A DNA stretch of 64,000 bases, taken from NCBI GenBank assembly GCA_000091205.1, contig AP006484.2; one strand, written 5' to 3'. The notes under the pieces are model-generated. The model did not search any database. It was given only the letters and a program-made list of their open reading frames with translations, and was not told where the DNA came from. The translations under genes were made by a program, and so were the position numbers. Shown one piece after another: positions 19,263 through 22,707 of this stretch. Numbering within the stretch: position 1 is the first letter of the stretch; every line of letters starts with the position of its first letter. The stretch comes from Cyanidioschyzon merolae. Taxonomy: Eukaryota.

Positions 19263-20432
19263 CTATGCAAATACAGTATTTTAAGGTCGGTCTCTGGAGA
19301 TTATGAGCCAAAGATCACAACTAAACACCGCAAGTTCCCGAAAAGCTCAGATAGCGCATTCTGATACCAGATCGCTTAGAGCGCGATCCAGTACGCAGTT
19401 GTTCGCGAGGCGCATCGGCGGCTGGAGGCGGCGGTTGATCTGCAGCGATCCATCGCAGTGCGATGGCTTTGTAGTGTCTCCAGCCTAGGCTCTTGAAACT
19501 AATCTGATATAGTAGACCGGGATACAGTATGCGCTTTTGTCGGGTGCCTCGATCGTTCCAGGCGAGATGCAAGGATCAAACGTCGTGGCAGATATGGACG
19601 CTACAAATGTGCTATGCCTCTGCCGAGATCACCAGATCCGGGGGACGTAGCGGGCATCATAACTTGGACAGCGACGATAGCATGGAAATGACTTGAACTA
19701 TCATCGGTTCTAGCCCATGACGCGGGATAGAAGCAAAATTCAGGTCAGGTCCTTATTCCAGCGTCCGTGCGGCATGCATAACAAGCATAGGGATTAAACG
19801 TATATCCGTGTTCAGGAATCCTACCGTGCCTTGTTTGTTTACGATCAATAAAACTAACGAAACTCTTCAAGGCTAGAGTGATGCGTACCTTATCCAGACA
19901 AGCGTAAGCCGCAGAGAACGCTACGCTTTTGATCGAAGCGTCGAGGGGTATCCTGCCAGGCCCCTACATCTCCATGTATGTCAAGGCGGTACTGCGATGG
20001 GCAGTAGCTTCGGCACCAGCGACAGACCCTATAGCAAGAGATTATTCTACGTGAGTTTCCAATCTACGATACTTTATTTCAGCTGCAGCGCGATACAAAC
20101 ACGCATGTGCCAAGGCGGGGTGTCGGACACGTGTCCTTCATCGATCGATGAGGCGTCTCGCGCAGCGCATGCATCGCGCTCGATGAGGGTACCTGGGAGT
20201 TGGGGCAGATATGAGACACGACGCGCGTGCCGCCGTTGAAGGGAAACGTGATCTTGATCTTTAGCGTCTAGCTCTCGTGTAAAAGTTGTATTTTCGTTAA
20301 CTTCATAGGCAAGTATAGTTTTTAGTTCGATTGTGTTTCAACCCTCAAGTGAAAATATTCGATTGATTTTTCGCAGTGTATAAGAGAAGCCTTCACAGAG
20401 GGTTCATTTGAAAAAACTCAAAAAGGAAAGTT

Positions 20433-21230
20433 ATGGAAGAGCAAGTCGACGATCCTGGAGGCCCAGGGTCGCAGGCTGCCAGAAAAAACAAAAAAACAGT
20501 GCCGAGTCCAGAAGAAAAGGAAGAGAAGAAGACCCAAAGGGGGAAGGTCCTACGTCGAAGGCGGCAGGAAAGACGACTGTACAACGAGATGGTGGTGAAT
20601 ACCTCTCTTCTTGGACATATCAAGGATCCGTACGAGCAAAATTTGCGAGACGCTATCAGAAACCGTGTCGATTCGGACTCCAGGAGTATTATAGAGGCGT
20701 CGCCAGGACTGATGCATTTAGCGAGGGAGGTGTATCGCGACGTGACGCACATGGAAACGGTCGAGATTCCGGACGAGCTCTTCGACCAGACTTTTATTCG
20801 TCACCTAATGCTTGGCACAGGGGAAGCGCGGAGGGGAAATGAGCGGGTGCAAGTCCTCCACGAAAACTTCGCGGAATTCCGCTTCGAGGGTAATCGATAC
20901 AGGGGTGACGGGGATATTTACATACGCGGCGCCATGAAGTACCTCACGAATCTGAAGAACCATTTAACAGTGAACCTCGAACGTTTCATGATACGCACCG
21001 AGTTTGCACTTTACCCGGGCATCTCTCGCAAGGGGATATCGGCGATGATCAATGGAATCACGAACGATCGCCAGCGAGAAGATGAGATCAAGTTCGTTGA
21101 CAAGAAGCCGTCACACAGGAGCATGAATGAAGTCTCTGTAATCCGTGCGCCTATACAAGAGCACCGTGCAGTCTTGGGGCTGGCGAATCCAACAGACAAG
21201 ATATCAGAGTTGAAAAATGATAAGGAATGA
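20433..21230 (+). CDS. Fanzor-like gene, N-terminal segment: basic NLS-like tract followed by a helical (REC-like?) region.
   Basis: ATG at 20433. KNKKTVPSPEEKEEKKTQRGKVLRRRRQERR resembles the NLS-rich N-termini of Fanzor proteins. No catalytic motif. Assignment to the same gene rests on collinearity and a phase-compatible GT-AG candidate intron at 21209-21308. Confidence 0.3.
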   Translation: MEEQVDDPGGPGSQAARKNKKTVPSPEEKEEKKTQRGKVLRRRRQERRLYNEMVVNTSLLGHIKDPYEQNLRDAIRNRVDSDSRSIIEASPGLMHLAREVYRDVTHMETVEIPDELFDQTFIRHLMLGTGEARRGNERVQVLHENFAEFRFEGNRYRGDGDIYIRGAMKYLTNLKNHLTVNLERFMIRTEFALYPGISRKGISAMINGITNDRQREDEIKFVDKKPSHRSMNEVSVIRAPIQEHRAVLGLANPTDKISELKNDKE

Positions 21231-21303
21231 TGTTATCCCCTCATCCTACGCTACTTCGTGCTTCTGGAACGAGAGCTCGAACGCAAGGCGGAGATGAAGC
21301 TGA

Positions 21304-21714
21304 GTAAGGAAAAATGAAGTGTCGGAGAGACGAAAGGCTGCGCTTCTGACGAACCGCTTCAGTGTCGTTCCAATGTGCAACATCAAGTCACATTTCGTGA
21401 GTATCGATTCCGGCGTCCTTTACGGCATTATGAGGCAGATCTGTCCGGAGTCCAATGTGAGCAGGGAGGAGTTCTCCGGTGAAAACCGGGAGACGTACTG
21501 GAAGAATATCTTCGATTTCAAGCGTCTCAAAGTGAGCAAGCAAAAGGTATTCACGGGAATGATCGGGACCGATGGAGTCGCCATGTGTGTACACTATCGG
21601 CGGTTGAAGACAGATCGTCCGTTCCGTCCTCGACTTCGCCCTCGGCGAAGCATGGAGAAAAGAAGGAGGCGGATCCTGCGACGCTGGAGGTGGAGGATAA
21701 CGACTTTGTGGTAG
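21304..21714 (+). pseudogene. Fanzor-like gene, middle segment (WED-like region) in a different frame from both flanking segments.
   Basis: ...[37 protein letters not shown] resembles the conserved TDG(V) strand preceding RuvC-I in TnpB/Fanzor. The frame-1 open stretch runs 21304-21714. A frame change is needed to continue into the RuvC segment; this is a frameshift or a short intron. Confidence 0.4.
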
Positions 21715-22634
21715 GCGTGAACCCCGGGAACACGAATATCGCAACCATCACAGCACCCAAGCGTGCAGAAGATGGTACTGATGGTAACTTGCGTCAGAAA
21801 GATATGCGTCTTTTGAGATTCTCGAGAGCGAGATACTATCGAGAATCCGGTATAATGAATGCAACGAAGAAAATCGAGACGAGGAACGCAGGAATGAGGG
21901 ATATCCTGGAAGCTATGAGCGAGGTGACGAGCCGCGGAGCGGAATTTCAAGCTTTTCGGGAGTTTATGGAAGTTCGTGTTGCCCATTGGGATGCGCTGTG
22001 GGAAGAATATACAAAGACCCGGTGGGCTCGTCTGTGTATGAACGTGCACTGTGGTAAGCAGCGTGCATTCGCGAACTTTTTCAATCACTTGAGCGCCCAC
22101 AAAGAAGATGAAAGTCAGAGGCTGTTAGTAGCATTCCGGGCAGAGCGCTGGAAGACCCAAAAATGGACTACGCCAGCTCCAACTACAAGAACGTTCAAGG
22201 AGTGCGCATGGCGTTTTGTTCCGATACCTGTAAATGAGTTCCGAATATCCTATACACACCATGAACTGGGATGCACACTTCAGAGGGTCGAATTGGAAAC
22301 GTGCCAGCGGAGCAATGAGGATATAAAAAAGTACGAAGCGCTGACAGAAGCGCTAATGAAAAGGAGGGCGAAAGTTCGTGGACTACTTGCGCTGGTGAGC
22401 GCAACCAATGATGGGAAAAAACGTATGGAGTTGGTGAACCGAGTCTTTAACGCAGCTATCAATATAAGGAAATGTGCGGTGCTGGAGAATAGACCTCCAG
22501 AGTGGACAAGAGAGAATCATACGGGGCAACCTCTCAAAGTGGAACGATATGAGAAAACGTTGGAAGCAGTAGTGGGTGGCCGGTCGAAAAAGACGGAGAG
22601 ACGTCTGCACGTCAGTTGGAGACGTCTTGTCTAG
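21585..22634 (+). pseudogene. Fanzor/TnpB-like RuvC plus degenerate zinc-ribbon segment; two of three RuvC acidic residues substituted (catalytically dead or decaying).
   Basis: - RuvC-I-like [15 protein letters not shown] (21705-21749; Asn at 21720-21722 where GIDxG has Asp).
- Fanzor-type YYRESG (21834-21851).
- RuvC-II-like PVNEFRIS (Glu at 22236-22238).
- HHELGC...ETC replaces the CxxC...CxxC zinc ribbon.
- RuvC-III NRVFNAAINI (22437-22466; Val where NRDxNAAxNI has Asp).

Spacing is I to II ~175 aa and II to III ~80 aa. Confidence 0.55.
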
Positions 22635-22707
22635 GGCGCGTTCGCCGCCACTACTCTACTCGGTCGGCGTCCTTCGCCTTTAGGACGGAGTTCGTTGGTG
22701 CTCGTTG

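Follow-up and report, generated by a model that had tools for sequence, protein, structure and literature searches.

A decayed copy of the Fanzor1-encoding transposon family CMe-1/CMe-1A in Cyanidioschyzon merolae

Introduction

The closest described relative of the locus analyzed here is CMe-1A, a 3169-bp transposon of Cyanidioschyzon merolae that encodes the Fanzor1 protein CMe-1 (734 aa, in a single exon), lacks TIRs, and is represented by ∼150 copies, each with ∼80% identity to the consensus (Bao & Jurka 2013, Mobile DNA 4:12; PMC3627910). The Fanzor1 proteins that have been characterized include SpuFz1 (PDB entries 8GKH and 9CEU-9CEZ), PpFz1 (9CF0-3), and GtFz1 (9CER-T). More distant are TnpB, exemplified by the ISDra2 protein (8H1J), and Cas12f, both of which are prokaryotic and much shorter. 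The TldR proteins arose when TnpB nucleases encoded by transposons were domesticated (PMC10705468).

The locus lies in a 64,000-nucleotide stretch of C. merolae contig AP006484.2, referred to below as the window; all coordinates are window positions on the + strand. An initial annotation of this stretch, made from the nucleotide letters alone, described a Fanzor/TnpB-like gene split over three ORF segments, with two of its three catalytic residues replaced, and considered it to be either a decaying insertion or a domesticated, nuclease-dead protein of a kind not yet described in eukaryotes. That premise of novelty did not survive a look at the literature: the family had been published for the same genome in 2013 (PMC3627910).

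Results

Family assignment and boundaries of the element. The segment 19486..22701 (+ strand, ∼3.2 kb) is almost certainly a pseudogenized copy of the Fanzor1-encoding transposon family CMe-1/CMe-1A of C. merolae. The translation of its coding region, repaired by mending three lesions (733 aa), shows 79% identity to the published CMe-1 Fanzor1 consensus, in an alignment that runs end to end (residues 1-733 versus 1-734) with one gap. At the nucleotide level, window positions 20204-22659 match CMe-1A nt 676-3135 with 86.7% identity in blastn, covering 2.46 kb of the 3169-bp consensus. The 349-aa ORF piece alone retrieved 205 homologues, with E-values down to 1e-177. Given these homologues and the full-length identity to CMe-1, the similarity to Fanzor proteins is far above chance level. 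The window copy has in common with CMe-1A the host genome, the single-exon organization, the HHELGC...C segment, and the 3′ tail, and its divergence fits the published ∼80% identity of individual copies to the consensus. It differs from the consensus in carrying a stop codon and two frameshifts and in lacking two catalytic Asp residues.

The same segment is the only repeated stretch of its neighborhood, with counterparts in up to 70 fetched metagenome loci. Its 5′ boundary at position 19486 (TAGGCTCTTGAAAC...) is sharp, as seen against three or more different flanks, and the 3′ limit of inter-copy similarity falls between 22688, where the published consensus ends, and ∼22701. The ends at 19486 and ∼22701 are common to dozens of loci, which is the setting of a multi-copy transposon. 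The first 718 bp (19486..20203, + strand) form an alternative non-coding 5′ module with no relation to the published 5′ end: the first 675 bp of CMe-1A (nt 1-675) fail to align with it and instead match window positions 57144-56581, apart from the 19486-22701 copy. Because of this different 5′ module, the window copy strictly belongs to a sister subfamily of CMe-1A and is not a copy of that exact consensus. The module is common to the metagenome loci L036, L005, L070/L058, and L073 (81-96% over 19486-20450, i.e., the module plus the leader). It is followed by an upstream leader (20204..20432, + strand) that is homologous to CMe-1A nt 676-905 and coincides with the start of the blastn alignment. 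At the other end lies a 3′ non-coding tail (22635..22701, + strand), and 36 copies show conservation downstream of the stop codon. An ORF at 22705-23445 begins a few bases past the 3′ end of the element, and neighboring ORFs are exact matches to the C. merolae 10D proteins BAM78932, BAM78936, and BAM78943. The AT-richer island seen by the initial annotation is real (50.2% GC in the element versus 55.3% in the window), albeit modest, as other 1-kb bins are equally low; the lower GC content stems in part from the transposon itself and in part from G>A/C>T decay.

Coding region and its lesions. The coding region consists of three ORF pieces of 265, 131, and 349 aa in frames 0/1/0, all on the + strand. 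Piece 1 (20433..21230) begins with MEEQVDDPGG at 20433, comprises a basic N-terminus and an N-terminal helical region, and is closed by a premature TGA at 21228-21230; the published consensus has the Arg codon AGA at this position, and relatives and CMe-1 read KDKERY or KDKERC. Piece 2 (21313..21621, frame 1; ORF listed as 21319-21714) contains a β-hairpin (WED-like) block at 21550-21591. Piece 3 (21621..22634; ORF listed as 21585-22634) contains the RuvC domain, a helical insertion, and a zinc-ribbon/TNB-like segment and ends with the stop codon TAG at 22632-22634. Compared with the majority of 64 copies and with the published consensus, a 2-bp deletion at 21309..21312 (∼21310) shifts the reading from frame 0 to frame 1, and a 1-bp deletion at 21619..21622 (∼21620) causes the second frameshift. 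The family consensus translates without interruption, whereas the window copy, with its TGA and the 2-bp and 1-bp deletions, has no full-length uninterrupted coding sequence. Since these breaks are a stop codon and two small deletions against a contiguous consensus, the three-frame split is the product of mutations and not of introns.

All the peptide blocks named in the initial annotation were found on the + strand, within 3 nt of where it had placed them, and in the order that it gave. The RuvC-I block occupies 21708-21749 and is followed by YYRESG (21834-21851), PVNEFRIS (22227-22250), HHELGC (22257-22274), ETCQ (22296-22307), and VNRVFNAAINI (22434-22466). The degenerate zinc ribbon is also present, as HHxxxC...C, but it is a feature of the family consensus and is not special to the window copy. 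A single 75-nt (25-aa) repeat unit at 21646..21720 (+ strand) is tandemly amplified, to at least two units, in many other copies, as seen from the pile-up of HSPs at 21640-21720 and a ∼75-nt majority insertion after 21684; the repeat is also visible in columns 420-560 of the protein alignment.

Both substitutions reported by the initial annotation were seen again, as was the retained glutamate. The RuvC-I catalytic position (21720..21722, + strand) is AAC (Asn) in place of the consensus GAC (Asp); the matching motif is DPG(R) in PpFz1 and DPN in SpuFz1. The RuvC-II Glu is retained as GAG (22236..22238, + strand), and the codon before it (22233-22235) is AAT (Asn) instead of Asp. The RuvC-III catalytic position (22443..22445, + strand) is GTC (Val) in place of the consensus GAC (Asp). 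The corresponding residues, D484, E656, and D725, are invariant in 44 diverse relatives, so that the window copy has N-E-V where the family consensus has the RuvC triad D-E-D. Among 51 sampled copies, 43 keep D-E-D, with scattered replacements in the rest. No copy with a single uninterrupted whole-protein frame was detected in any of the 73 loci searched. Given the D-E-D triad in most of the sampled copies and no intact frame in these loci, such decay is typical of the CMe-1 family.

Relationship to characterized Fanzor1 proteins. Neither Pfam nor NCBIfam yielded a match for any of the three ORF pieces, and five close relatives likewise gave none in Pfam; the OrfB_IS605 and TNB models stayed below threshold on both the window pieces and the relatives. 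A weak precomputed match to DUF8286 (PF26935) is on record for some close relatives, and one distant relative has a weak sub-threshold Pfam match to PF07282 (Cas12f1-like_TNB). Searches of the PDB sequences with the repaired protein (phmmer) and with a profile of 23 close family members produced no matches. A profile of 44 diverse relatives, found by an exhaustive representative search, matched PpFz1 (9cf0; E 1e-19), SpuFz1 (8gkh; 7.6e-11), and GtFz1 (9cer; 5.6e-6), with the RuvC-I, -II, and -III motifs aligned in these matches.

The fold comparison was run on a close family member, P0170, and not on the broken window copy. An AlphaFold (AF2) model of P0170 (pLDDT 79.9) had its best Foldseek matches in SpuFz1, PpFz1, and GtFz1 (E ∼1e-15 to 1e-13), and Cas12f, Fanzor2, and TnpB ranked next; the match to SpuFz1 had an E-value of ∼1e-15 and a TM score, normalized by the target, of 0.70. 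A model built from a shallow in-family alignment reached a pLDDT of only 36 and was kept out of the fold search. As modeled, P0170 has the predicted Fanzor/TnpB fold, with WED and REC domains and a split RuvC domain that carries an inserted zinc-ribbon/TNB.

By sequence and by fold, then, the CMe-1 family is related to Fanzor1, and the description of the locus as a Fanzor gene remnant, more precisely Fanzor1, was borne out by the identity to CMe-1, the family profile, and the structural comparison alike. In addition to the aligned motifs and the predicted fold, the family resembles the characterized Fanzor1 proteins in its basic N-terminus and its seat within a eukaryotic transposon. However, identity in the structural alignments is only 12-15%, the zinc-ribbon equivalent of the CMe-1 family is His/Cys-poor, the family has a variable acidic 25-aa repeat before RuvC-I, and the window copy is no enzyme at all. 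With TnpB and Cas12f, the likeness is limited to a distant RuvC/WED core fold (Foldseek probability 1.0, E 0.035 for 8H1J), and these proteins have no significant sequence similarity to the CMe-1 family.

Orthologous locus and divergence. An orthologous metagenome contig from an environmental relative (L002) shows 97.5% identity over window positions 20251-25096. It has the same TGA, both frameshifts, and the same Asn and Val residues, so these lesions are common to the window copy and its orthologue. L002 has GAT in front of the RuvC-II Glu and an extra lesion, a 1-nt deletion at 22413, upstream of RuvC-III. The two sequences differ at 1.3% of sites in the element (20606-22700) and at 1.1% in the downstream 2.4 kb, with the flanking DNA ∼1.1-1.4% diverged overall; the element diverges about as fast as the non-coding flank. 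Positions 20254-20605, at the L002 contig end, were left out of this comparison because their 65 differences in 352 bp probably stem from a chimeric contig or from gene conversion by a different copy. In the ORF pieces, 16 non-synonymous and 10 synonymous differences were counted, a sample of just 26 substitutions.

Against the consensus, ∼12-13% of the coding positions of the window copy differ, with a pN/pS ratio of ∼0.5 and not 1. Such a value is what one would expect if active master copies had already accumulated some of the divergence by the time of insertion, although it does not by itself prove neutrality. The view that the insertion is not ancient is hard to keep with this level of coding divergence and with a relative whose flanking DNA has diverged by ∼1.1-1.4% sharing both the copy and its lesions.

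The 3′ end. In intact-looking copies, the 3′ tail forms a long terminal hairpin, which is a candidate for the scaffold end of an omega-RNA or for the right end of the transposon. Single-sequence folds gave hairpins of 10-19 bp whose sequences differ among subfamilies (e.g., L045, L029, and L043; z -5 to -6), and the same type of fold gave z = -0.3 for the window copy, in which the hairpin is degraded. RNAalifold on a MAFFT alignment of the 3′ tails produced a weak consensus and no compensatory pairs, with subfamilies that have different hairpins misaligned. An Rfam scan of 19000-23500 found no family, only two chance-level matches far below the gathering score.

Three observations on the family as a whole are absent from the 2013 description. 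The CMe-1 elements have interchangeable 5′ modules, the long 3′-terminal hairpin is kept by different sequences across subfamilies, and the 5′ end of the element in several loci lies ∼66 bp downstream of the 3′ end of another copy. Because of these three features, the unclassified CMe-1 elements, which lack TIRs and TSDs, might be imagined to move in a site-directed, hairpin-recognizing manner of the IS200/IS605 type or by RNA-guided homing beside existing copies. At the window locus taken alone, the 3′ end might still give rise to a small RNA that serves the host in some way. Such readings are very unlikely.

Discussion

The locus is a pseudogenized transposon copy of an already known family, and there is nothing new in the locus itself. 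By analogy with TnpB and the characterized Fanzors, an active CMe-1 element would encode a nuclear-targeted, omega-RNA-guided RuvC endonuclease of ∼734 aa, with the 3′ end of the element as the source of its guide RNA; the ancestor probably had such activity. The window copy inserted at about 19486-22701 and has drifted without constraint since then: its coding region has gained a nonsense codon and lost the reading frame through two small deletions, two of the three catalytic carboxylates have been replaced, ∼12-13% substitutions have built up, and the 3′ terminal hairpin has eroded. Given all these changes, no functional protein and no activity are expected from it, and it presumably has no residual function today.

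Of the two fates offered by the initial annotation, the decaying Fanzor insertion is retained and the domesticated regulator is not. A eukaryotic analogue of TldR, i.e., a nuclease-dead Fanzor that controls a neighboring gene through RNA-guided DNA binding, might be suspected because just one of the three catalytic residues, the Glu, survives alongside most of the fold-defining motifs, because the Asn and Val are also present in L002, because pN/pS against the consensus is ∼0.5, and because an ORF starts a few bases beyond the 3′ end. However, TldR genes are intact and conserved, have dedicated guide RNAs, and adjoin the genes that they regulate. The window copy resembles them only superficially, in its replaced RuvC carboxylates: set against the single-exon consensus, its frame is destroyed by two frameshifts and the stop at 21228, and what the locus contains is a transposon copy in decay. 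L002 adds a frameshift upstream of RuvC-III, its 16 non-synonymous versus 10 synonymous differences are not those of an intact ORF under purifying selection, and element and flank evolve at about the same rate. Release from the transposon context, single-copy status, and a dedicated guide RNA were not observed either; the copy is one of ∼150 similar decayed ones, still between transposon ends (PMC3627910), other dead copies have scattered catalytic replacements as well, and the hairpin, the putative end of a guide-RNA scaffold, is eroded. The broken frame had already largely refuted this explanation, which is scarcely credible.

There is next to no chance that the three segments belong to an intact gene, either joined by introns or by programmed frameshifting, or broken only by assembly errors. 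The pieces are collinear and each is long, but the relatives and the published single-exon consensus run contiguously through both junctions without extra sequence, and the breaks are 1-2-bp deletions and an in-frame TGA, not intron-sized insertions; introns were rejected on these grounds. Introns in C. merolae number only a few dozen. A sequencing or assembly error is unlikely because the lesions recur in a metagenome contig that was assembled independently. A dead protein gene whose sequence now serves the host as DNA or RNA, e.g., by giving rise to a small RNA at its 3′ end or by acting as promoter or insulator of the ORF beside it, is likewise extremely unlikely. The 3′ tail does show conservation among copies and borders the next ORF; however, this conservation is family-wide and hence a property of the transposon, not of the locus, and in the window copy the terminal hairpin is degraded and matches no Rfam family.

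With the locus read as a decaying transposon copy, it is of little weight by itself, being one of the ∼150 decayed Fanzor1 copies catalogued in 2013, and the false lead of a "dead Fanzor" regulator in eukaryotes is removed. Before replaced catalytic residues in a Fanzor or TnpB relic are taken as a sign of domestication, they need to be weighed against the consensus of the family, the state of the reading frame, and the orthologous loci. The published CMe-1 consensus, together with the many copies in hot-spring metagenomes, offers usable material from which an active red-algal Fanzor1 could be reconstructed along with its guide RNA.

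Identity and surroundings of the locus

Three collinear open pieces on the plus strand at 20433-22634 (20433-21230, frame 0; 21319-21714, frame 1; and 21585-22634, frame 0, a 349-aa piece) contain all the peptide blocks quoted in the initial annotation, each within 3 nt of where it had been placed. The 349-aa piece has 205 homologs, all from JGI or ENA metagenomes and mostly 70 to 80% identical; its matches in the protein collection are metagenome gene calls only, with no NCBI protein. Bao and Jurka (2013; PMC3627910) listed one Fanzor1 family in C. merolae, CMe-1A, a 3169-bp transposon without TIRs and with the TSD not determined, present in ∼150 copies that are each ∼80% identical to the consensus and encoding a 734-aa single-exon protein. 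In comparisons with the consensus sequences from the supplements of that paper, CMe-1A nucleotides 676-3135 align with window positions 20204-22659 at 86.7% nucleotide identity, and residues 1-734 of the protein consensus CMe-1 align with residues 1-733 of the window translation, repaired at three points, at 79% identity with a single gap. The locus is a pseudogenized copy of a transposon family that was described in C. merolae in 2013 and is already known.

The flanking ORFs exactly match the C. merolae 10D ATP-citrate lyase (BAM78932), signal peptidase (BAM78936), and Nog1 (BAM78943), and the remaining genes of the window are ordinary eukaryotic ones, such as SPT6, PEX3, and MoeA. The proposed "AT-richer island" is real insofar as the GC content is ∼50% at the locus versus 55% in the whole window, but it is not distinctive, as several other 1-kb bins have equally low values. 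It reflects a consensus GC content of only 52% and a bias toward G>A and C>T changes in the window copy (95 versus 62 in the reverse direction).

Assignment to Fanzor1

No match came from Pfam or NCBIfam, from phmmer searches of PDB sequences, or from a profile built on close relatives. An exhaustive profile search recovered 1489 relatives at E values of ≤0.001, and 44 long ones, 23 to 40% identical, were used for a diverse alignment, in which the three RuvC positions are invariant Asp, Glu, and Asp. The resulting profile did match Fanzor1 proteins, namely, those of Parasitella (9cf0; E value, 1e-19), SpuFz1 (8gkh; 7.6e-11), and GtFz1 (9cer; 5.6e-6); the DPG, DEFRT, and NRD..A..N motifs line up in these matches. 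Structure prediction was run on a relative, the protein P0170, rather than on the window copy; with this deeper alignment of 44 relatives, the AlphaFold model reached a pLDDT of 79.9 and a pTM of 0.77. Its best Foldseek hits in the PDB were SpuFz1, PpFz1, and GtFz1 (E values of 1e-13 to 1e-15; TM score to SpuFz1, 0.70, normalized to SpuFz1), followed with much weaker scores by Cas12f, Fanzor2, and TnpB. Because both the diverse profile and the P0170 model match Fanzor1 structures, the original Fanzor/TnpB assignment was correct.

Element ends and 5' modules

The left boundary of similarity to other copies is sharp, at position 19486 (TAGGCTCTTGAAAC...), and holds in at least three settings with unrelated flanks; on the right, similarity stops between 22688, where the published consensus ends, and ∼22701. 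The first 718 bp (19486-20203) differ from the published CMe-1A 5' region, which the short element TE-N2_CMe also carries (PMC3627910). That 5' region stands alone at 57144-56581 (−) as a ∼550-bp copy with 78% identity, presumably the nonautonomous TE-N2_CMe itself, and recurs in 16 of the retrieved loci. Therefore, the CMe-1 family has alternative 5' modules. Many other copies carry tandem amplifications of a 75-nt unit (21646-21720) that occurs once in the window copy and once in the published consensus.

The ∼55 to 65 nt past the stop codon are conserved among the copies and in most of them fold into a terminal hairpin of 10 to 19 bp (e.g., L045 1672-1819, L029 2300-2447, and L043 5209-5356, all metagenome loci); the window copy has an eroded version (z = −0.3). 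The hairpin sequences differ entirely between subfamilies, e.g., CGTCGTTCGA-CTT-TCGAACGGCG versus CCGGCGAGCACGCGC-TCGT-GCGCGTGCTCGCCGG, and such retention by different sequences suggests that active elements are under selection for the structure. Its position makes the hairpin a candidate for the omega-RNA scaffold end or a transposon right-end structure. RNAalifold and Rfam analyses yielded nothing useful. At several metagenome loci (L036 1237-1372, L005 926-1061, and L070 and L058 at ∼2516-2987), the 3' terminal hairpin of a partial CMe-1 copy is followed, ∼66 bp downstream, by the 5' end (TAGGCTC...) of another element, and the junction is identical (...GATGTACGGGT|TAGG). This repeated junction is either a propagated composite or a sign of insertion beside existing copies.

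Other repeats and Fanzor1-like relics

A 2,406-bp inverted duplication (11028-13433 and 27214-24809; 98.5% identity) encloses ∼11.4 kb with a WD40 gene, a DUF7178 gene, and the CMe-1 relic; being recent, this repeat could promote inversion of the enclosed segment. A second Fanzor1-like relic, at 26006-28052 (+), carries many stops and shows ∼26 to 32% amino acid identity to CMe-1 relatives; its N-terminal part falls within the duplication and is therefore present twice, with the partial duplicate at 12236-11341 (−). This relic is much older than the CMe-1 one and belongs to a different family; Bao and Jurka (PMC3627910) give a single Fanzor1 family for C. merolae. A third, heavily degraded Fanzor1-like fragment at 62480-61962 (−) covers the helical insertion and RuvC region and is 30 to 38% identical to relatives such as the protein P0179.

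Immediately adjoining the TE-N2_CMe-like copy, a tandem array (54964-56615) comprises ∼18 units of ∼92 bp that are 81 to 93% identical. Since each unit holds a ∼43-bp motif resembling CMe-1A nucleotides 520-563, it may have arisen by expansion from the transposon end. A shorter array of four ∼83-bp units (30749-31080; 96 to 97% identity) lies beside the signal peptidase gene.

Decay or domestication

Compared with the majority of 64 copies and the published consensus, the window copy has three lesions: an in-frame TGA at 21228, replacing an Arg codon, and deletions of 2 bp at ∼21309-21311 and 1 bp at ∼21620. Close relatives are uninterrupted at both junctions; the split into three pieces is the product of these mutations and not of introns. 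The consensus of the metagenome copies translates without interruption and contains VVGADPGNTN, VDEFRTSYTHHELGC, and FVNRDFNAAINI. The reported catalytic substitutions were confirmed, with AAC (Asn) at 21720 (RuvC-I) and GTC (Val) at 22443 (RuvC-III), whereas the RuvC-II Glu at 22236 is retained. The odd HHELGC...C segment is indeed present but is not peculiar to this copy, as it belongs to the family consensus.

The initial annotation had offered a decaying insertion or a domesticated nuclease-dead regulator. The metagenome contig L002 comes from a close relative and carries the locus orthologous to this one; it is 97.5% identical over 20251-25096, including the downstream flank. The TGA, the two frameshifts, and the Asn and Val replacements also occur in L002, where a further 1-nt deletion at 22413 cuts the last piece short of RuvC-III. 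Divergence between the window copy and L002 is 1.3% within the element (20606-22700) and 1.1% in the 2.4 kb downstream, and the ORF pieces contain 16 nonsynonymous and 10 synonymous changes. A stretch at the contig start (window 20254-20605, L002 3-360) shows 65 differences in 352 bp, against 98 to 99% identity elsewhere, and probably results either from chimeric assembly within repeated sequence or from gene conversion by another copy. A 246-aa ORF at 22705-23445 (+), beginning a few bases past the transposon 3' end, shows 4 differences from L002 in 741 sites, a lower divergence than that of the DNA around it, and so may be a real host gene.

Relative to the consensus, the window copy carries ∼12 to 13% substitutions (280 against the published one, distributed 80:65:135 over codon positions 1, 2, and 3), and its pN/pS ratio of ∼0.5 is expected if the divergence arose partly in active master elements, which gives no argument for constraint here. 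Domestication was rejected on the stop and frameshifts, the extra frameshift in L002, and the similar divergence of element and flank, leaving the other half of the original interpretation, a Fanzor1 remnant with dead catalytic residues. The Asp-Glu-Asp triad is retained in 43 of the 51 sampled copies, with scattered replacements in the rest, and none of the 73 loci searched for intact copies has a single uninterrupted frame spanning the whole protein. The window copy is thus dead and, in this, typical of a family that is itself largely dead.
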